Made by a program: the position numbers and the translations under genes | Source: Sphingobacterium sp. | Lineage (GTDB): Bacteria > Bacteroidota > Bacteroidia > Sphingobacteriales > Sphingobacteriaceae | DNA: 64,000 nucleotides | Direction of reading: 5' to 3' | Assembly: GCA_048595255.1 (NCBI GenBank) | Contig: JBMDWK010000025.1 | Coordinates: 4,342-68,341 of the forward strand | The notes under the pieces: generated by a model | What the model was told of the DNA's origin: nothing | Seen by the model: only the letters and a program-made list of their open reading frames with translations | Databases searched by the model: none | In this document: positions 4,453-47,391 of the stretch, piece by piece | How the letters are laid out: every line of letters starts with the position of its first letter | Numbering within the stretch: position 1 is the stretch's first letter

Positions 4453-6938
4453 TGAATCTTATTGCAAAACTACTTTTAAGCCATCTCCTATATTTTTGTT
4501 TTTTAGCTATCTCATTAGCACAACCAGGTTTTGGTGAGCCGACGAAGCTAAATAAGGGCTGGTTTTTCAAATTAGGTGATATACAGAATGGACAAAACCT
4601 AACTCAATTCGATCCTTCATTTCAACGATTAGATTTACCGCACGACTGGTCTGTAAAACAAAGTTTGAGTCCTACATTAGCAAGTGCTACAGGCTATTTG
4701 CCTGGCGGCATCGCTTGGTATTATAAAGTGGTGAATTTTTCGAAAGAAGATGCAGGAAAGAAATACTATGCATACTTCGAAGGGGTATATAATCGCAGTG
4801 ATGTATATATCAATGGACAATCATTAGGTCATCGCCCTAACGGTTACGTTTCATTTATGTATGATTTGTCTGCTCATATCAAGTACGGTGAACAGAATGT
4901 TATCGCTGTTCGAGTGAATCACAGTCAAGATGCAGATTCTCGCTGGTATACGGGATCTGGTATTTATCGTAACGTTTGGTTAGTCAAATCCGAGCCTGTA
5001 CATATAGATTTGTGGGGTGTATACTGCTATCCAGAGTTGAGTAAGGATAACGGAACGTTGCAGGTAGAATTGAACTTGGTTAACCACCTAAGTACTACAA
5101 AAAAATTAAAAGTGCAATACGAGCTTATTGATCCATTGGGTAAAGTTGTAGCTTTTAAAAGTGCATCAGAGAATATTCTTGCAAATGAAAAAAGAGTTTT
5201 CAAATCCAATCTCAATGTTTCCAAACCCCAACTTTGGTCCGTTGAGTCACCTCAATTATACCAATTGAAAACTAAAATTTTTGATAATAACAAATTGATT
5301 GATAGTAGCACCGTTAATACTGGTTTTCGTAAATTCACTTTTGACCCCAATAAGGGCTTTGCTTTGAATGATAAATGGATGAAAGTAAAAGGAATCTGTT
5401 TTCACCATGATGCAGGGGTATTGGGAGCCGAAGTGTATAAGGAGGTGTGGGAACGCCGTTTGTTGAATCTCAAAAAAATAGGGGTGAATGCAGTGCGCAC
5501 GAGTCACAATCCTCAATCTCCGATTATTTATGAATTGTGTGATAGGCTTGGGCTATTGGTGTTGAACGAAGTATACGATGAATGGGAATTCCCTAAACGT
5601 AAATGGCTTCAAGGCTGGAATATAGGCACTCCTGGTTTTCAAGGTACATTCGATTTTTTTGAAGAATGGGGCGAACGAGACTTAGCCGATATAGTGCGAC
5701 GCGATCGCAACCATCTATCTGTATTTGCATGGAGTATTGGTAATGAAGTGGATTATCCGAATGATCCCTATTCTCACCCTATATTGAACGGTGACAAAAA
5801 CCAAGGTTTTACGCAAGCTATCTATGGCGGATACAAGAAAGACGCTCCTGATGCGATGCGTTTGGGAATTATTGCTAAGAAGTTAACAGCGGTAGTGAAA
5901 AAATACGATCAAAGTCGCCCTGTGACAGCTGGTCTGGCTGGCGTAGCTATGTCCAATGAAACAGAATACCCTGGCGCCTTAGATATTACCGGTTACAATT
6001 ATACGGAGAGCAAATATCACGAGGATCACAAGAGATATCCAAATCGTATAATCTTTGGCAGTGAAAACAGACATGATTTGGCTGCTTGGAAAGCAGTGGT
6101 AGATAATGATTTCATTTTTGGTCAATTCTTATGGACGGGGATTGATTATTTAGGAGAATCAAGAGCATGGCCTTCTCGTGGATTTTATTCGGGATTAATG
6201 GATTTGGGCGGTTTCATCAAACCGAGAGGCTATTTTAGACAATCTCTCTGGGCTGAAGAACCTATGATTTATATCGGAACATACCCATTATCAGATACTA
6301 AGTGGGAAAATAATTCTTTTGTTTTTGAAATCAATGAACGTCGTAAACTTGATCCCCCATCTATTGACGCATGGCCTCATTGGAATTATCAATCTGGACA
6401 ATTAGTTCGTGTAGTGGTTTATACCAATGCAACGCAAGCTTACTTGTTATTAAATGGAAAACCAATTGACGAAAAAAAATCGGATAAAGGTAGTTTTGGT
6501 GTTCTATATTGGGATGTACCATACTCCGCAGGCATATTGGAAGCTATTGGATTAGATGAGAATGGTAAAGAAATATCTCGTCATTCGATACAGACAAGTG
6601 GTCGTCCTGATGCGATTACTGTCAATCAAGAGCAAATTGAAGTGGCGAAGAATGATGGTGCAGGACAAATTGAAATTCAAATTGTTGATGCAAAAGGAAT
6701 ACCCGTATCATTATCAGAGGAGGAAATTACTTTTGAATCTACACCCAATATTAGATTGTTGGGTATGGAAGCAGGGAATAATTCAGATATGACAAGTTAT
6801 ACCGATAATCGGCATCGCGTATTTAGGGGTAGAATGATTATTTATTTCAAATCGCACGATGAAACAAGTAAGGAAGGTAAAATTTTGCTAAAATCAGACT
6901 GGCTGAAACCAAAGGAAGTGACCGTTATATTTAAATAA
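4452..6938 (+). CDS. GH2 glycoside hydrolase (beta-galactosidase-like)
   Basis: LPHDW, YFEGVY, RWYTGSGIYRNV, RTSHNP, WSIGNEV (acid/base) and FGSE (nucleophile) motifs. Start overlaps the upstream stop (TAATG). Confidence 0.92.
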   Translation: MNLIAKLLLSHLLYFCFLAISLAQPGFGEPTKLNKGWFFKLGDIQNGQNLTQFDPSFQRLDLPHDWSVKQSLSPTLASATGYLPGGIAWYYKVVNFSKEDAGKKYYAYFEGVYNRSDVYINGQSLGHRPNGYVSFMYDLSAHIKYGEQNVIAVRVNHSQDADSRWYTGSGIYRNVWLVKSEPVHIDLWGVYCYPELSKDNGTLQVELNLVNHLSTTKKLKVQYELIDPLGKVVAFKSASENILANEKRVFKSNLNVSKPQLWSVESPQLYQLKTKIFDNNKLIDSSTVNTGFRKFTFDPNKGFALNDKWMKVKGICFHHDAGVLGAEVYKEVWERRLLNLKKIGVNAVRTSHNPQSPIIYELCDRLGLLVLNEVYDEWEFPKRKWLQGWNIGTPGFQGTFDFFEEWGERDLADIVRRDRNHLSVFAWSIGNEVDYPNDPYSHPILNGDKNQGFTQAIYGGYKKDAPDAMRLGIIAKKLTAVVKKYDQSRPVTAGLAGVAMSNETEYPGALDITGYNYTESKYHEDHKRYPNRIIFGSENRHDLAAWKAVVDNDFIFGQFLWTGIDYLGESRAWPSRGFYSGLMDLGGFIKPRGYFRQSLWAEEPMIYIGTYPLSDTKWENNSFVFEINERRKLDPPSIDAWPHWNYQSGQLVRVVVYTNATQAYLLLNGKPIDEKKSDKGSFGVLYWDVPYSAGILEAIGLDENGKEISRHSIQTSGRPDAITVNQEQIEVAKNDGAGQIEIQIVDAKGIPVSLSEEEITFESTPNIRLLGMEAGNNSDMTSYTDNRHRVFRGRMIIYFKSHDETSKEGKILLKSDWLKPKEVTVIFK

Positions 6939-41343: not shown

Positions 41344-41922
41344 TTATTTAATATTTACGACTTCAATCTCGAAGAATAATGGAGAATTGGCCGGGATTTT
41401 ACCTTGTTGGCTGGCTCCATAACCATAATAAGAAGGCGTTACAATTCGGATTTTGCTTCCTATTTGTAGACCGGAAGGTGTAAGGCCGCCAAATTTAAAT
41501 TCGCCTATATCTTTTGGAATAAATGCCAGTTGCCATGCTCCAATCAAATTGTTCAATTTGCTGGTAAGACCAGCTGTTGTTGTATTGGAATCAAACACAG
41601 AATTATCCGAAATCAGCTTACCTGTATAACGAACGGTAATTGTCGGCATGCGCAACGCTTTTACGGTTTGTCCATACATGTTTGTCGTATCGACTACTTT
41701 GTATTCATAGCTATTGGGCATTCCTTCATCTACAATTTCAAACCATATTCCAGTAGTATCATTAAGTGTCATTTCAGGATAATTACTGTTTACATAGGAT
41801 TTGATAATTGGTTTTTCAGATTCGAATTGAGCAATAGGATCAAAGACATTACTCTCCTTTGTACATGCTGTAAAAAGAGATATAATGATTGTTAGGCAAA
41901 ATAATTGTTTAATAAAATTCAT
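41344..41922 (-). CDS. FKBP-type peptidyl-prolyl isomerase lipoprotein
   Basis: Lipobox TAC from ATG 41922; 'VRYTGKL..VFDS', 'LIGAW', 'PSYYGYG', 'IPANSPLFFEIEV'. Confidence 0.85.
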   Translation of the reverse strand: MNFIKQLFCLTIIISLFTACTKESNVFDPIAQFESEKPIIKSYVNSNYPEMTLNDTTGIWFEIVDEGMPNSYEYKVVDTTNMYGQTVKALRMPTITVRYTGKLISDNSVFDSNTTTAGLTSKLNNLIGAWQLAFIPKDIGEFKFGGLTPSGLQIGSKIRIVTPSYYGYGASQQGKIPANSPLFFEIEVVNIK

Positions 41923-41936
41923 AGCTCTAAAATAAC

Positions 41937-41973
41937 AAAAAAGAGATAAAATCATATATTTTATCTCTTTTTT
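41937..41973 (-). terminator. AT-rich 16-bp hairpin between the two FKBP genes
   Basis: AAAAAAGAGATAAAAT-catat-ATTTTATCTCTTTTTT. Confidence 0.6.
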
Positions 41974-41983
41974 TATCCTTCGA

Positions 41984-42637
41984 TTATTGAATTTCTAGAA
42001 CTTCAATTTCGTACACTAGAGGTGAATTCGCAGGAATGTCACCAACTTTGTTTCCACCGAAAGCCCACAAAGATGGCGTAATGTATCTGATTTTACTTCC
42101 TTTTTTCAGACCATCCTTAGTCAATCCGCCCAATCCACTAATTTTCACATCTACACCATTGAATTTTACTGCATAAGGGAAAAATGCAAAATACCAGGAG
42201 TTGTTGAAAATATTGTTACTACCTGTAGTAAATGAATATTGGGTTCCTTGTAAGTCTGACTGAACTACTGTGCCATTTAATAATTTTGCCGTATACTTTG
42301 CCTTGAAAGTAGGTGCTGTCAATTGTTGCGTATTTACGGCTTTGTATTCGTAAGAATTGTCCGTAGGTGGGTTAAGGATTTCGTACCAAATACCTCTATT
42401 TACGGGGCCTTTATTCAAGTATGTATACCTGATTTTTACAGTATCCTCTACCTCGTTTTGAAAATGTAGATTGACATATTCTTCGATTTTGATCTTTTCT
42501 GCACTAAGAATAGAGTCTATAGCTCGCTCTTGTTGTAAAATTTGTTGTTCGTAATCGACATCAACACTATCATTACATGAAGTAAATGTAATGGCCATTA
42601 ATACAGCAGCAGTTAGTGTGCTAAATAAGTTTTTCAT
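41984..42637 (-). CDS. FKBP-like lipoprotein with diverged active site
   Basis: Lipobox TSC; 'KYTAKLLNG', 'KKGSKIRYITPSLWAFG', 'IPANSPLVYEIEV'. Confidence 0.75.
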   Translation of the reverse strand: MKNLFSTLTAAVLMAITFTSCNDSVDVDYEQQILQQERAIDSILSAEKIKIEEYVNLHFQNEVEDTVKIRYTYLNKGPVNRGIWYEILNPPTDNSYEYKAVNTQQLTAPTFKAKYTAKLLNGTVVQSDLQGTQYSFTTGSNNIFNNSWYFAFFPYAVKFNGVDVKISGLGGLTKDGLKKGSKIRYITPSLWAFGGNKVGDIPANSPLVYEIEVLEIQ

Positions 42638-42713: not shown

Positions 42714-43196
42714 CTAATTCGTTGATAAAGATTTTTCCATAACGAGTAAGAGCTGATTTAATTGTGCAGGATTTAGTAATCCGGGCTGTCTGAATAATGG
42801 ATTATAGGTAGCATCGAGAAGAATCCATGTCGGATAGGAGATTTGATCGCTTCCATTCAATGCTATTGCTAGCTCATGTGTACCCAAATTGATTCCTCGA
42901 GGTATGAATTTGTATTCTCTCCCTTGAAATACAACTTTATCCCTACTTTCAGCATTAAAGTCCACGAAGTAAAACTGATGATGTTGCTCAGCAAACTGTT
43001 TATTTTTCTGTATTTGTTGTTTCTGCATCGCACAATATTGACACCAGTCCGTCGAAATCAAAAGGAGTATAGGCTTCGGCTCTGTTTTCATCAAGCTATC
43101 TACTTTTGCAATGGGTACAGGAATAATCTGTGCAGATGCGTAGGCAGCTGCACAGGTATATATCATGAACAATATTAGCTTACGAACATGTAACAT
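42714..43196 (-). CDS. Exported thioredoxin-family protein
   Basis: Signal-like N-terminus, WCQYC motif, 'SYPT' cis-Pro loop. Confidence 0.85.
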   Translation of the reverse strand: MLHVRKLILFMIYTCAAAYASAQIIPVPIAKVDSLMKTEPKPILLLISTDWCQYCAMQKQQIQKNKQFAEQHHQFYFVDFNAESRDKVVFQGREYKFIPRGINLGTHELAIALNGSDQISYPTWILLDATYNPLFRQPGLLNPAQLNQLLLVMEKSLSTN

Positions 43197-43215: not shown

Positions 43216-45444
43216 TTATAAAATATTATACCGTAGCCCTAAGAATCCACGTATACCCTGATTGGGTCCGTATACGTAGCTTGGGTCAAATGGCAATAGA
43301 TTAGGATCATCAATTCTCTCAAAAGGATCGTGTGCTCGCGAGATAATTTCAATACCGCCACGTGTTGGTGTCCAGTTTAACAGATTTTTTACTCCCCCGA
43401 ATATTTCCAATCCATTATTGAAGTTTTTGGTGAGTTGGATATTTTGAATGCTCCAGGCTTTGGATTTATCAGGTCTTGTATCTTGTGGCCCAAGAACAGG
43501 CAGGCGCATTGGTCCGATTACATTTCCGGTATAATCAATTGTCAATCCAAGACGTCTTAGGTTGTAACCGATGGTCCATGTGCCCATCGCTTTTTCCGTC
43601 AGCATCTGCCATTCTTTGACTCCATCTTCCACGCTGTATACATCCATGACGGTAGCGCCGATCATGGCTTTCAGTCCACTGGTGTGCGCCCAATCCAAGT
43701 TGAGGGACACTCCTTTTGAAACCGCATGACCATTTAAGTTCTCATAGATAATCTTGTTGACATCGGATTCATAATCTGGAATGATTTTGTTGTTAAAGTA
43801 GGTGTAAAAGGCACTCGCATCAATTGCAAATACCGAACCACCATCCATATAGAATTTCTTTATGTAATTTACATTTCCATTCCAGGAGGTTTCGGGTTTT
43901 AGATCTTCTTCAAAAGTCACATCGCGTGCTCCTGTGAGCGCTGCGTGGTCTTCCGTAAACACATTTGCAACACGGTATCCGTTGCCAACACCTACACGGA
44001 GCACTTGTGTGCGATCCAGCGAGTTCCATTTATAATTCACACGTGGAGAAACAATACTTCCGTGAATAGAATTGTAATCATAACGTGCTCCCAGCAATAA
44101 TTTATGCTGCGGATGTAAGGTGATTTCGTCCTGAATAAACAATCCGGGAAGATGGGTGCGTGAGGAATTGACTGTTGCGGGTGTATTGTCATTATAATAG
44201 GTATAACGATAAGCTAATCCCGTTAGTAGATCATGATTATTAATTTCCTTGCGCCATGTCAACTGTCCAAATGCTATTTTTTGATCAGCTAAATAGCGGG
44301 TATCTCCATATACAGAATTTTGGTCGTGACCATTTACGCTGAAAGTAAACGTTAAGTTTTCGCTTGTTGGTAAATCATACGCACCCATCAATTCCCAACG
44401 TTTTGTATATATACTTTCGCCGTATACCTCATCTCCTCCGCGGTACTTTCTGGACCAGTTCATTTCGCCTCCCCAACGATCCTCGTACACATATCGACCA
44501 GCCAAAGTGAACAATTTGTTGTCTTTGCGCGCAAAATTCCATTTGTTGAATAGCGAAAATCTATTTTGTAACGTTACGTCCGTGAAATTGTCACCATTTT
44601 TGTCAATTGGATTGCTATAATTGAAATAATTAGCGCCAATTAGTGACTGTGAGGAACCTACGTTAAATTTTCCACCCAAGTCGAGATTGTACTCTTGCCA
44701 TGAAGTTCCAAAAGTTTCTATGTTTAATCGTGGTGCGGAATTTGGGCTTTTGGTGATAATATTTATGAGTCCGCCCACGGCTTCGCTACCATAAAGGGTA
44801 GAAGCTGGTCCTTTGACAATTTCCACACGCTCGATCAACGCTTGTGGAATACCATTTAAACCGTACACTGTAGAAAGTCCCGACACTATGGGTAATCCAT
44901 CAATCATAACCATCGTATAGGGGCCTTCTAGACCATTGATGTGGATATCCCCCGTATTACATACGCTACAGTTGATTTGCGGACGTACTCCATTGATATT
45001 TTGCAATGACTCGAATATCGTAGGCGCCGGATTAGATTGGAAAAATTTTGCTGTAAAAACTTCTACAGGGATAGGGCTATCCAATTTGGATACCTGTTTG
45101 AGCGTGCCGGACACGACTACTTCTTCAAGATTGCGGTTGTCGCTGTCCAAGATGATTTCTAGTCCTTCTTGGTAGGTGGTATTGGCAAGGTCTTTCTTTG
45201 CCGGCATATAACCTACAGCGCGTGCCGTGATTTTTGATTTTCCGCTAGGCAATTGAATGGTGAAATTTCCTTCCGAATTCGTGGAGATTGCCACCTTCGT
45301 GCCATCCACAGATATAGTTGCATTGTCGATCGGATTACCGTCCGAATCTTTTATAGTTCCTTTGATTAGATTTTGTGCATGTAATATGAAAGCAAAGCTA
45401 ACCAACAAGGCAGTTAGCGTACAGCTTTTGATAAGTTGTAACAT
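43216..45444 (-). CDS. TonB-dependent outer-membrane receptor (non-SusC; probable metal/metallophore uptake)
   Basis: Carboxypeptidase-like N-domain; plug 'NCSVCNTGDIHINGLEGPYT', 'IERVEIVKGPASTLYGSEAVGGLINIITK'; C-terminal 'GFLGLRY'. Confidence 0.9.
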   Translation of the reverse strand: MLQLIKSCTLTALLVSFAFILHAQNLIKGTIKDSDGNPIDNATISVDGTKVAISTNSEGNFTIQLPSGKSKITARAVGYMPAKKDLANTTYQEGLEIILDSDNRNLEEVVVSGTLKQVSKLDSPIPVEVFTAKFFQSNPAPTIFESLQNINGVRPQINCSVCNTGDIHINGLEGPYTMVMIDGLPIVSGLSTVYGLNGIPQALIERVEIVKGPASTLYGSEAVGGLINIITKSPNSAPRLNIETFGTSWQEYNLDLGGKFNVGSSQSLIGANYFNYSNPIDKNGDNFTDVTLQNRFSLFNKWNFARKDNKLFTLAGRYVYEDRWGGEMNWSRKYRGGDEVYGESIYTKRWELMGAYDLPTSENLTFTFSVNGHDQNSVYGDTRYLADQKIAFGQLTWRKEINNHDLLTGLAYRYTYYNDNTPATVNSSRTHLPGLFIQDEITLHPQHKLLLGARYDYNSIHGSIVSPRVNYKWNSLDRTQVLRVGVGNGYRVANVFTEDHAALTGARDVTFEEDLKPETSWNGNVNYIKKFYMDGGSVFAIDASAFYTYFNNKIIPDYESDVNKIIYENLNGHAVSKGVSLNLDWAHTSGLKAMIGATVMDVYSVEDGVKEWQMLTEKAMGTWTIGYNLRRLGLTIDYTGNVIGPMRLPVLGPQDTRPDKSKAWSIQNIQLTKNFNNGLEIFGGVKNLLNWTPTRGGIEIISRAHDPFERIDDPNLLPFDPSYVYGPNQGIRGFLGLRYNIL

Positions 45445-45624
45445 AAATTGTTATTCTTGATTAATGATTAGTTGGTACAATATGAACCACGCAATAAGCG
45501 GGAAATAAGTCAATATACAGCTGTATACAGAGCTATTTTCCAATCCACATGGAGTTCATCAAATTATAATCTGTTCTAAAAAAGTAATTTGCAAAGCCTC
45601 TGCTCAGCAAAATTTAGGAAATCA

Positions 45625-45987
45625 TTAAGCAAGAGAGGGAGGTCCTCTTAGGTAATTGTGAAATAGGGGTACGGGCCTATTTGAGCGTGTGTATCCTATA
45701 TCAACGGGGGTAGAAAATTCGGGAATAATTGGGGCTTCGAAAGTGATAAAATCACTCTCAATAAATACGCCTTGATAAACAACATCCAAAAAGCGAATCT
45801 CCGCATCGCTTTTGTGCTGGTGTTTTTGTTTTTTGGTAAAGTCATAAGGGTGAATGTGCGTGATGATTTCACCCTTAGAGGTTACCTCTTTGTGCATAAA
45901 CACTATTCCACTAATCACAATAATACTCATCCAGCACGTCAGCAACGTGGCTATGAGTCTGCGATATGTCGAAATTAGGTTAATCAC
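45625..45987 (-). CDS. His-rich leader (uORF) ending in RGPP, candidate ribosome-arrest peptide
   Basis: GTG start, hydrophobic N-terminal helix, H-K..H-I-H-P..H-Q-H cluster, C-terminal LRGPPSLA*; directly upstream of the TBDT gene. Confidence 0.75.
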   Translation of the reverse strand: MINLISTYRRLIATLLTCWMSIIVISGIVFMHKEVTSKGEIITHIHPYDFTKKQKHQHKSDAEIRFLDVVYQGVFIESDFITFEAPIIPEFSTPVDIGYTRSNRPVPLFHNYLRGPPSLA

Positions 45988-46003: not shown

Positions 46004-46354
46004 TTATTTTATTAATCTATTGTTGTCGTCTGGAAAAACAAGTTTTGGTTTGTGTGCTCTTGCTTCTTCTCTGTCCATCAGCCCGTACGAAATGATGATA
46101 ACGATATCACCTACTTGTACCAATCTAGCTGCTGCACCATTCAAACAAATTGTTCCTGTACCTCGTTTTCCAGGGATGACGTAAGTTTCTAATCTTGCGC
46201 CGTTATTATTATTTACAATCTGTACTTTCTCGTTTGCAATTATATCTGCTTCATCCATCAAATCTTCGTCGATGGTAATACTTCCCACATAATTCAATTC
46301 AGCTTGCGTTACACGAGCGCGATGAATTTTGGATTTCATTACTTCAATCATCAT
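46004..46354 (-). CDS. panD: Aspartate 1-decarboxylase
   Basis: '[20 protein letters not shown]' (G-S autocleavage), 'TYVI', 'NGAAARL'. Confidence 0.97.
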
Positions 46355-46394
46355 GATACAAAGTTACGCTTTATATTTAAAAATGTATATGTTA

Positions 46395-47246
46395 TTAATC
46401 GTTCAAAAACATATTGTCTATTAATCTAACTCCTTCTATCCAAGCGACAATATGAGCCACATATTGCTTGCCTTCTTCAGTGGATTCGGCTCTTTCTAAT
46501 GTGCGAACTTCACTCAAGGCAAAATATTCCAGTTCCACGCCTTCTTTGTCGGCTATCATTTTTTCGGCCAATTGTTGGCAGACGGATAGAGGTTTCCCTT
46601 CGGCAAATGCAGATTTGACAGCTTGTAAGGTTTTGTATAATATGAGTGCTTTTTCTTTGCCTTCTGCCGATAGTCGAGCGTTTCTAGAGCTTAAAGCTAG
46701 TCCAGATTCGCTTCGAATGATGGGACAAATGACCAACTCGATGTCGAGGTTCTTCAGCTCGATCATGCGTTGTATGACCATGACCTGCTGAAGGTCTTTC
46801 TGTCCAAAGCAAGCAATATCCGGATTTACTAGCGTAAATAGTTTGTAGACAATCTGTGTGACCCCCTGAAAATGTCCTGGTCGCTGTTCCCCTTCCCATA
46901 TCAAGTCGAGTCGGCCTAGATCAAGATGCCATTGTTCGTTCGTGTCAGGATACATCTCTTCTACTGTAGGAAGAAATAGCACATCACAGCCATTATCGGA
47001 TAGCAGCTTTATGTCGTTTTCGATCGGTCGAGGATATTTTTCTAGATCCTTAGGATCATTGAATTGAGTAGGGTTGACGAAAATGCTACATATTATAATA
47101 TCGGCCTTCGCTCGGGCCTGCTGTATAAGCGAAAGATGACCTTCGTGTAGCGCTCCCATCGTTGGTACCAAAGCTATTTTCTTTTGTTGTGCACGAGGCG
47201 CCTCTAGATAGGCGCGTAGTTCATTTTGGGTGTGAATAACTTTCAT
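46395..47246 (-). CDS. panC: Pantoate--beta-alanine ligase
   Basis: 'VPTMGALHEGH', 'SIFVNPTQF', 'RPGHFQGV', 'FGQKD', 'GLALSSRN', 'RLIDN'; ATG 47246 preferred. Confidence 0.97.
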   Translation of the reverse strand: MKVIHTQNELRAYLEAPRAQQKKIALVPTMGALHEGHLSLIQQARAKADIIICSIFVNPTQFNDPKDLEKYPRPIENDIKLLSDNGCDVLFLPTVEEMYPDTNEQWHLDLGRLDLIWEGEQRPGHFQGVTQIVYKLFTLVNPDIACFGQKDLQQVMVIQRMIELKNLDIELVICPIIRSESGLALSSRNARLSAEGKEKALILYKTLQAVKSAFAEGKPLSVCQQLAEKMIADKEGVELEYFALSEVRTLERAESTEEGKQYVAHIVAWIEGVRLIDNMFLND

Positions 47247-47318
47247 TCGTGTAGGAGTAAAATAGGGGGCAAAAATGCATAATAAATTTGTAATCTGAAA
47301 GCTATAAATTACAAAGAA

Positions 47319-47349
47319 TTGTAAAATTTGTTTATTATTTGTATCTTTG
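47319..47349 (+). promoter_or_regulatory. Bacteroidota sigma-A type promoter
   Basis: TTG (47319)-N20-TATCTTTG (47342). Confidence 0.6.
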
Positions 47350-47391
47350 TACACCGATTTTACTGTTCAAATAATAAAAAAACAATTGGAG

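Follow-up and report, generated by a model that had tools for sequence, protein, structure and literature searches.

A histidine-rich, RGPP-ending leader upstream of a TonB-dependent transporter in Sphingobacterium: a candidate arrest peptide whose coding end co-varies with the transporter start

What does a short open reading frame (ORF) that carries a histidine cluster and ends in RGPP do directly in front of a gene for a TonB-dependent transporter (TBDT)? This question is raised by a locus in Sphingobacterium sp. (GenBank assembly GCA_048595255.1, contig JBMDWK010000025.1, positions 4,342 to 68,341 of the forward strand; these 64,000 nucleotides are called the window here), in which a 120-residue ORF, referred to as the leader, is separated from the ATG of the TBDT (45444) by exactly 180 nt on the same strand. 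The original prediction, made from the letters of the window, described the hydrophobic N-terminal helix, the His cluster, the position of the RGPP and the gap to the TBDT, all of which are present in the sequence, and proposed that the leader arrests its own ribosome and thereby gates the TBDT in response to a metal. In this analysis, we found that the arrest-type motif is conserved at the amino-acid level, that it stands at a fixed distance from the His cluster, that the TBDT follows the leader in all Sphingobacteriaceae loci long enough to show it, and that the end of the leader co-varies with the start region of the TBDT as the two arms of an RNA helix. With a probability of roughly 60%, we read the leader as a regulatory arrest peptide of the RAPP/RGPP class, whose His module would be exported and whose arrest at RGPP would keep the start region of the TBDT open.

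Its conservation marks the leader ORF as a genuine gene that is selected for its protein product. A protein search returned 72 homologues, all named ones from Sphingobacterium, and a species-level scan with one genome per species gave 80 loci in Sphingobacterium, Parapedobacter and Rhinopithecimicrobium, the best match being that of S. alimentarium (90% identity). Wherever the contig is long enough, these loci share the order panC-panD-ORF-TBDT-thioredoxin, with panC and panD at 46004-47354 in the window. The leader is followed by a TBDT in 78 of the 78 loci that reach far enough, while the other two end before the TBDT. A caution attached to the original prediction was that the leader starts with a GTG only 16 nt after the panD stop. 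This spacing is correct, but nearly all of the 80 loci have a start codon at the same place, 31 ± 1 codons ahead of HKE, with ATG in 56, GTG in 14 and TTG in 10 of them, which settles the doubt in favor of the ORF. A promoter box of the Bacteroidota -7 type (TAnnTTTG) over the window GTG was considered as a further reason to doubt the start and was set aside, as the box is absent in close relatives. In the window's clade the leader is probably co-transcribed with panCD, and one metatranscriptome contig covers both panD and the leader ORF. The leader matched neither a Pfam nor an NCBIfam model at E ≤ 1, and among the open segments of 100 aa or more in the six frames of the 64-kb window RGPP is found just once.

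Among the 80 loci the motif reads RGPP in 73, RDPP in three, RAPP in two, and NSPP and LDPP in one each. The PP is invariant, and R[G/A/D]PP, retained in 78 of the 80, is placed 2-5 residues before the stop. Within the RGPP motif, every one of the six Arg, four Gly and four Pro codons occurs across these loci, and the variability over L-R-G-P-P is 0.59 at the third codon position versus 0.13 and 0.07 at the first and second. Synonymous codons thus vary freely across L-R-G-P-P, and therefore it is the peptide, rather than the RNA, that is under selection. In 79 distinct sequences the residues R9, A13, I23, S26, G27, F30, H32, K33, E34, H44, H46, P47, Y48, D61, L67, P116 and P117 are invariant, and R114, G115 and L113 are conserved at 97%, 91% and 77%, respectively. 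The His core was invariant in the first 29 sequences and is invariant in all 80. Conservation is high over residues 23-67, low over residues 77-112 and high again only at L113-P117, with the last three residues free. The length of the variable part is nevertheless kept: the HxHP-to-R distance is 68-73 residues in the 80 loci, and the D61-R114 stretch has an indel in just one of the 79 sequences. Loss of RGPP or of the histidines in orthologues had been named in advance as an argument against the proposal; both are instead invariant or nearly so in the 80 species and in more than 250 clusters of the superfamily described below. The original prediction had also suggested looking for His-rich ORFs ending in RGPP or RAPP upstream of homologous TBDTs; members of the leader family stand before a TBDT in all 78 complete loci and in seven of nine distant contexts.

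The peptide can be divided into four parts. The N-terminal transmembrane or signal-anchor helix, in which AlphaFold2 predicts a confident helix at residues 2-25 (pLDDT 81-85), would lie in the membrane N-in according to the positive-inside rule, and invariant A13 lies within it. It is followed by the His module, presumed to be the metal-sensing part, with the layout H32-K-E34 ... G39 ... H44-x-H46-P47-Y48 ... H56/H58 ... D61, I64, L67. For this part AlphaFold2 gives a low-confidence model (mean pLDDT 64) with a β-hairpin (29-35/41-47) and a helix (61-70), the remainder being disordered; the predicted hairpin would set H32 and E34 opposite H44 and H46. The spacer and the putative arrest core come last. 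The sole Cys of the window leader, C18, is located within the membrane helix, and no Cys column is conserved.

The second line of evidence comes from the RNA. In the minimum-free-energy fold, 45633-45620 pairs with 45469-45456 at 13 of 14 positions, and the two arms of this helix are the best-conserved blocks of the otherwise divergent gap in eight close relatives. Within the window's clade the helix is kept with compensatory changes, and in other clades it is built from different sequences (Table 1). For each locus we computed the duplex energy between the leader end (-15 to +9 relative to the end of the stop) and the TBDT start of that locus (-40 to +12), and compared it with the energies of randomly re-paired loci. 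In 59 representatives the cognate pairs had a mean energy of -8.7 kcal/mol versus -6.5 kcal/mol for the permuted ones (z = -7.9, p < 5e-5), and none of 20,000 permutations was as low. The signal was also found in 25 representatives below 70% peptide identity (z = -6.4) and in nine below 60% (p = 0.002), whereas four control segments, two further upstream in the ORF, one just past the stop and one within the TBDT coding region, gave z values of -0.8 to +1.0. Uninterrupted helices of at least 7 bp were present in 45 of 76 loci, with 19.6 expected. The permutation was run on unaligned windows, and pair counting on an alignment (A2) was dropped, because MAFFT misaligned the 3′ arm in it. The leader stop region and the TBDT start region therefore co-vary, and the idea that the leader gates TBDT expression, at least as far as sequence comparison can tell, gains support independent of the peptide.

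Table 1 Features of the leader locus in the window and arms of the long-range helix in the window and in other clades.
Feature	Position in window	Strand	Basis or remark
panD (aspartate 1-decarboxylase)	46004..46354	-	stop 46004-46006, 16 nt before leader GTG
Leader ORF, 120 aa (GTG start 45985-45987, TAA stop 45625-45627)	45625..45987	-	sequence, homologues, syntenic loci
Transmembrane/signal-anchor helix, residues 12-31	45895..45954	-	Kyte-Doolittle 19-residue mean 2.14; R9 upstream invariant
Conserved His module, residues 32-67	45787..45894	-	invariant columns in 79 sequences; presumed periplasm-facing
Spacer, residues 68-112, variable sequence, constant length	45652..45786	-	entropy ~3 bits/column
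L113, ahead of RGPP	45649-45651	-	77% conserved
RGPP (R114-G115-P116-P117), predicted arrest core, three residues before stop	45637..45648	-	conservation, and arrest in other bacteria
Helix 5′ arm CUUGCUUAAUGAUU (codons L119, A120, stop and 5 nt beyond)	45620..45633	-	minimum-free-energy fold, alignment, permutation test
Terminator-like hairpin (45588-45611) and U-run (45578-45583), 13 nt after stop	45576..45611	-	fold, terminator scan
Helix 3′ arm AAUCAUUAAUCAAG (-25 to -12 from TBDT AUG)	45456..45469	-	minimum-free-energy fold, alignment, permutation test
TBDT (CarboxypepD_reg, Plug and barrel)	43216..45444	-	Pfam; presumed regulated gene
Thioredoxin-like protein, CxxC (WCQYC), 19 nt past TBDT	42714..43196	-	Pfam Thioredoxin_2/7
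Helix arms, window			5′ arm TTAATGATT; 3′ arm AATCATTAA
Helix arms, locus L007			5′ arm GTGCTTGTTT; 3′ arm AAACAAGCAC
Helix arms, locus L015			5′ arm GTTTTTGCGT; 3′ arm ACGCAAAAAC
Helix arms, locus L036			5′ arm TATTTTAGCT; 3′ arm AGCTAAAATA
Helix arms, locus L047			5′ arm ATTAGCATA; 3′ arm TATGCTAAT
Helix arms, locus L056			5′ arm AATTCAGC; 3′ arm GCTGAATT
Helix arms, S. multivorum clade			5′ arm TTAGCAT; 3′ arm ATGCTAA, takes in the TBDT AUG

Motifs of this kind have been studied in other bacteria. RAPP and RGPP are experimentally robust arrest cores that tolerate their context and resist EF-P, RGPP being generally the strongest, and both are depleted from proteomes, with a frequency bias of 0.17 in Bacteroidota (PMC12992588). 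That study (Fujiwara, Tsuji, Sakiyama, Niki and Chiba, EMBO J 2025) also assembled a catalogue of small proteins, secreted or membrane-bound, that carry a C-terminal RAPP or RGPP and are encoded ahead of genes for TonB-dependent receptors, with 4450 RGPP versus 125 AGPP cases, and described these upstream ORFs (uORFs) throughout Gram-negative bacteria. Its Fig. 4 source data list, as uORFs of TonB-dependent receptors, homologues of our leader from three Sphingobacterium-type genomes (WP_133585647.1, WP_145327559.1 and WP_133639041.1), which share the pattern FMHKEV...HxHPYDF...RGPP, with RAPP in WP_133639041.1. Several members of the wider family are listed too, one of them upstream of an RND-pump adaptor. 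Like the uORFs of the Chiba laboratory, the leader is shorter than 300 aa with a transmembrane segment, carries a conserved RGPP at its C terminus, and lies directly before a TBDT on the same strand. The newness implied by the original prediction is therefore reduced, and the leader is an uncharacterized member of an already catalogued class. The treatment there was in bulk, only Streptomyces lividans peptides and CruR were tested, and the His-motif family, the spacing rule and the RNA structure, left undefined in the catalogue, are results of the present analysis. In the parts of its text and supplements that are accessible, the word Sphingobacterium is not used.

The only experimentally dissected RAPP leader upstream of a TBDT is CruR (Bp2923, DUF2946/PF11162) of Bordetella pertussis, which precedes the TBDT BfrG (Roy et al., mBio 2022; PMC9426467). 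In CruR, arrest at RAPP prevents Rho termination, and copper, bound via a CxxC that stands 45 ± 2 residues from the arrest motif, relieves the arrest (PMC9426467). Our leader is likewise a small exported protein directly upstream of a TBDT, with a long untranslated gap, a C-rich 3′ part of the ORF and a sensor motif at a fixed distance from the arrest motif, although this distance is ~70 residues instead of 45. In contrast to CruR, with its CxxC, cleaved signal peptide, RAPP and proteobacterial host, the leader has His motifs (HxE/HxH, HxHP, HxH), a membrane anchor and RGPP, and is found in Bacteroidota. Membership in DUF2946 was ruled out: the leader contains no CxxC, gave no Pfam match to this family at E ≤ 1, and reached a probability of only 0.45% in hhalign against a DUF2946 sequence. 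It is thus an analogue of CruR and not a homologue, as had been proposed, with His in place of CxxC.

The predicted RNA output resembles that of other leaders. CutF of Rhodobacter capsulatus, a DUF2946 protein of the cutFOG operon, stalls upon copper addition, and the stalled ribosome melts a stem over the cutO ribosome-binding site (PMC9973294; bioRxiv 10.1101/2025.02.05.636593). A ribosome stalled on our leader would similarly open a stem in the mRNA over the start site of the next gene. CutF differs in its copper-induced stall, its detoxifying enzyme cargo, its Cys-based motif, its EF-P-dependent PPP-type stall and its masked Shine-Dalgarno sequence, while the helix described here covers an A/U-rich upstream region or the AUG and the cargo is a TBDT importer. 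Bacteroidota largely lack Shine-Dalgarno-led initiation. SecM-secA, MifM-yidC2 and VemP-secDF2 also combine an N-terminal localization signal with a C-terminal arrest sequence, and their arrested ribosome disrupts a sequestering stem; they monitor secretion or membrane insertion and control components of these machineries, whereas our leader precedes a TBDT and carries a His-rich module. ApdA and ApdP share the R-A/G-P-P core with the leader. In Streptomyces lividans, SLIV_16130 and SLIV_18480 are arresting RAPP/RGPP peptides before metal-related genes, with conserved His and Cys residues predicted as metal sites (PMC12992588). They belong to another phylum and to other families, their cargo is Cu-related and not a TBDT, and no relationship to the leader was detected. 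By analogy, then, the leader would resemble CruR in cargo and probable logic, and CutF and SecM in its RNA output, with a sensor module of its own.

From these comparisons we infer the following mechanism. The N-terminal helix would anchor the nascent chain in the inner membrane, and the His module (residues 32-67) would be exported during translation. About 70 residues later, the ribosome would meet R114-G115-P116-P117 and arrest. With P116 reached, the tunnel would hold the last ~35 residues and the translocon the next ~15-20, and the His module would only just have reached the periplasm. If the arrest occurred with P116 in the P site, the ribosome would shield ~16 nt downstream, which takes in the last codons up to the stop and most of the 5′ arm, whose first 8 nt would fall inside the ribosome. 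The 3′ arm, lying 12-25 nt upstream of the TBDT start in the window and on the start codon itself in other clades, would then be unpaired, the initiation region of the TBDT would be open, and the TBDT and the thioredoxin-like gene would be translated. Upon release, the ribosome would terminate three codons on, the helix would re-form and the TBDT would be turned off. The switch probably responds to a divalent transition metal that binds to the His module, and metal binding and folding would pull on the chain and release the arrest. This geometry appears compatible with release by a pulling force, the sensor being ~70 residues from the peptidyl-transferase center. Because the cargo is an importer, a logic in which the transporter is off when the metal is replete, as in CruR, is probable. 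Of the CruR-like mechanism originally proposed, the gating is thus supported, while the output would be closer to the translational unmasking of SecM and CutF than to the Rho-dependent termination of CruR.

Several points weigh against this reading. The precedents for stalling come from other peptides on ribosomes outside Bacteroidota, so arrest here is argued by analogy, and the model of the His module is of low confidence. About 40% of the loci have no clear helix in the windows tested, TBDT starts were called as the first ATG and some may be wrong, and the helix is only suggestive in seven distant loci (-8.3 versus -6.4 kcal/mol), a number too small for a firm statement. In the window, the hairpin and U-run behind the stop lie outside the footprint of the arrested ribosome and could terminate most transcripts regardless of arrest. 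Moreover, the hints to the metal from neighboring genes and profiles, described below, conflict among zinc, nickel and iron.

We considered alternative explanations for the same data. The arrest may act chiefly as it does in CruR, by keeping Rho from loading onto the C-rich ORF end and the gap, in which case release would lead to termination before the TBDT. CruR is the worked-out case of a RAPP uORF before a TBDT (PMC9426467), the untranslated gaps between leader and TBDT are long and variable (42-443 nt, median 203), and the last 60 nt of the leader ORF are C-rich and G-poor over 78 loci (C 31-34%, G 11-20%), which is compatible with a Rho loading site and recalls the CT-rich unstructured stretch of CruR. 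The excess of C over G may, however, just mirror the codons for His, Pro, Thr and Tyr, and Rho attenuation leaves the co-variation between the stop region and the TBDT start unexplained. We regard it as an unlikely main output, although one that may accompany the helix. That the leader serves as a stable small metal-binding protein of the inner membrane, for example an accessory protein or chaperone for the TBDT and the thioredoxin, with RGPP as a structural or interaction motif, would fit the strong conservation and partly predicted folding of its N-terminal two thirds, as well as the second hydrophobic segment that about half of the distant relatives possess, as real membrane proteins do. 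This is improbable in view of the C-terminal third, which is unconserved save for L-R-G-P-P at a fixed distance and beside the stop, of a substitution pattern that matches arrest motifs in a sequence otherwise avoided in proteomes, and of the RNA helix that couples the leader end to the TBDT start.

A signal other than a metal can also be envisaged for an arrest peptide at this place. A membrane anchor combined with a C-terminal arrest motif is typical of monitoring substrates such as SecM and MifM, which sense membrane insertion or the capacity for secretion, the hydrophobic segment of distant relatives ends at a median of 25 residues before PP, where insertion can pull the chain, and the thioredoxin-like CxxC protein conserved downstream would suit the sensing of periplasmic redox. 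The genes that follow encode no Sec or YidC components, though, and five conserved His with no conserved Cys speak for metal binding rather than redox, which makes this option slightly more improbable than that of a stable protein. The least probable of the alternatives is that the leader is the mere last gene of a panCD transcript ending at the hairpin and U-run (45576-45611), with the TBDT expressed from its own promoter. The 16-nt spacing between panD and a weak GTG and the terminator-like hairpin 13 nt past the stop in the window and in its nearest relative (L001) would agree with it, and the metatranscriptome contig that covers panD and the leader (depth 24) ends at 45555, ~20 nt past the U-run, versus a depth of ~2-12 over the TBDT; contig ends and assembler depths are poor evidence, however. 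The hairpin and U-run are also not conserved beyond the nearest relatives, and a clade-conserved helix with compensatory changes implies that transcripts containing both arms matter. The arrest peptide with helix-based gating is the preferred reading.

The leader is not confined to Sphingobacteriaceae. A profile search over 1.8 billion cluster representatives gave 254 clusters at E ≤ 0.001, nearly all of 110-130 aa. Among 147 divergent representatives, HxHP[YF] is present in 139, an extra HxH just upstream in 132, and HxH or HH downstream in 121; Sphingobacterium-type leaders carry HxE where most divergent members have the upstream HxH. A C-terminal xxPP is found in 143 of the 147 (RGPP 81, RAPP 37, RSPP 13, GPPP 5, RPPP 3), and the His-to-R spacing is 65-78 residues in 139 distant representatives, with a mode of 70-72. 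Tolerated variants are mainly RAPP, RDPP, RSPP and RPPP, with the PP kept, and the R is absent in only four sequences (NSPP, LDPP, KSPP and one of the five counted as GPPP). In an alignment of 32 sequences with ~25% identity, H31, H43, H45, P46, R115, P117 and P118 are invariant, and H33, G38 and H60 are conserved in at least 90%. A strongly hydrophobic spacer segment occurs in about half of the distant members, whereas the corresponding segment is only mildly hydrophobic in the Sphingobacterium type. The named distant members are from Runella, Spirosoma, Fibrella, Fibrisoma, Nibrella and Arsenicibacter, all of which are Cytophagales, and all are annotated as 'hypothetical protein'. A family scan of ten distant relatives returned no Pfam match. 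By its sequence, the leader therefore belongs to a Bacteroidota superfamily outside Pfam, defined by HxH...HxHP...HxH, ~70 aa and R[G/A/S]PP, and usually located before TBDTs.

In seven of nine distant contexts a CarboxypepD_reg-type TBDT lies directly downstream, in one of them also with a thioredoxin gene. Other cargo was observed as well. At L088 (7001-7429), a 142-aa family member with RGPP 26 residues before the stop precedes a CBM9/DUF5916 protein, and at L091 (8001-8369) a family member precedes a DHOR di-haem protein, a Rieske protein and a porin. In Spirosoma montaniterrae (L090 8372-8406) the gap between leader and TBDT is just 33 nt, which rules out a long-range helix there, and the coupling must therefore be different, for example through local structure or reinitiation. 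In two lineages the leader has pantothenate genes as neighbors: these are panC-panD in Sphingobacteriaceae and, ~1.4 kb upstream, panB in S. montaniterrae (L090 5824-6642). This may be a coincidence.

Within Sphingobacteriaceae, the same panCD-linked leader is followed by two types of TBDT (L001-L080), one 62-98% identical to the window TBDT (43216-45444) and the other only 26-30% identical. The leaders are 42-60% identical across both types, and the thioredoxin-like proteins split likewise, with 46-57% versus 26-36% identity (89% in the nearest relative, L001). This pattern suggests that the TBDT cargo has been replaced behind a retained leader. As it is followed by two unrelated types of TBDT at one locus and, in distant members, by the DHOR-Rieske-porin and CBM9/DUF5916 cargo, the leader appears to be a portable switch. 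The thioredoxin-like gene is a conserved third member of the leader-TBDT module, with a match in almost every complete Sphingobacteriaceae locus (L013 being an exception) and also in distant locus L087. Taken as a whole, a tentative picture, to which we give slightly less than even odds, is that of an undescribed, Bacteroidota-wide group of nascent-chain sensors, each composed of a membrane anchor, a periplasmic triad of His pairs (HxH/HxE ... G ... HxHP ... HxH), a spacer of constant length (~70 residues) and R[G/A/S]PP, that would respond to a divalent metal other than copper, gate translation through a long-range helix without a Shine-Dalgarno sequence and be used as a portable switch.

The sensor region contains five conserved His and one Glu and no conserved Cys, a set that would fit Zn, Ni, Co or Cu(II). 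Several observations in the wider family touch on the identity of the metal. For zinc, a COG0523/cobW GTPase gene (L084 4913-5887), itself preceded by two amidohydrolase genes, is found 113 nt ahead of a distant member and in the same orientation, and a stand-alone HisI-like PRA-CH gene (L088 6523-6918) is divergent to and adjoins another family member; both kinds of neighbor are typical of zinc-limitation regulons, and COG0523 is tied to zinc homeostasis (PMC2770081). For nickel, the NCBIfam model HypB_prefix_2 (NF053668), which describes an N-terminal prefix of the nickel-insertion protein HypB, gave sub-threshold matches on the His region in eight of ten distant members, spanning residues ~30-57 (P0101, P0123, P0128, P0205 and others). 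The best of these scored 27.8 bits against a cut-off of 35, and membership was rejected in favor of a resemblance in pattern only. For iron, there are XusB and DHOR neighbors in distant loci. The TBDT itself gave every NCBIfam match far below the cut-off, and its nearest relative of solved structure is CirA (E = 6e-22), followed by other distant siderophore and B12 receptors. These matches are too distant to point to a substrate. In the window, two tandem paralogous lipoproteins with C-terminal FKBP-type prolyl isomerase domains (41344-42637) follow the thioredoxin gene on the same strand, and relatives of their genes are also found downstream in most Sphingobacterium loci.

Among RAPP-type leaders before TBDTs, CruR (copper, Proteobacteria) alone has been studied experimentally, and thousands have merely been counted in genomes. 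The leader family offers a second model, with a sensor of His instead of Cys, in another phylum and with another predicted output. If the preferred reading is true, it would show ribosome arrest controlling a gene in Bacteroidota, mostly without Shine-Dalgarno pairing, provide a regulator and eventually a substrate metal for widespread uncharacterized TBDT-thioredoxin operons, and justify a new protein-family entry for members now called hypothetical. Each of its parts, namely the arrest core RGPP, the histidines, the length of the spacer and both helix arms, lends itself to mutational analysis.

In addition to the long-range helix, the gap contains other RNA features. The terminator-like hairpin of the window, with the sequence UUUGCUGAGC-AGAG-GCUUUGCAAA followed by UUACUUUUUU, is located inside the loop closed by the long-range helix. 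Over the loci, hairpins after the stop are on average more stable than those of shuffled sequences (-8.3 versus -5.6 kcal/mol), at positions 1-59 nt past the stop and mostly without U-tails, which occur chiefly in the window and its nearest relative. A conserved intrinsic terminator is improbable as a family-wide mechanism, as a strict scan was positive in only a minority of the loci. On inspection of the sequence, a candidate antiterminator in the window, in which the codons of the RGPP tail pair with the hairpin, spans only 5 bp and is not conserved given the codon variation, and no convincing antiterminator was found. A comparison of the leader ORF and the gap with Rfam 15 gave two chance-level matches (E = 0.17 and 0.48), far below the gathering scores.

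Upstream of the leader, many loci (L017, L029, L035, L040, L045, L053, L054 and L059-L080, at ~5950-6000) contain a -7 box (TAnnTTTG), often at -38, ahead of the leader ATG, followed by a G+C-rich hairpin with a species-specific stem and then by a U-run that abuts the ATG. This element looks like a panD terminator overlapping the leader's own promoter. Loci in which the leader directly follows panD without this promoter-hairpin element mostly have GTG or TTG starts. In one clade (L036-L044, at ~5960-5990), the probable -33 and -7 elements of the leader promoter flank a near-perfect palindrome, (A)TGCTAATTTTAGCA(T), which might be a repressor operator, possibly of the Fur or Zur kind.

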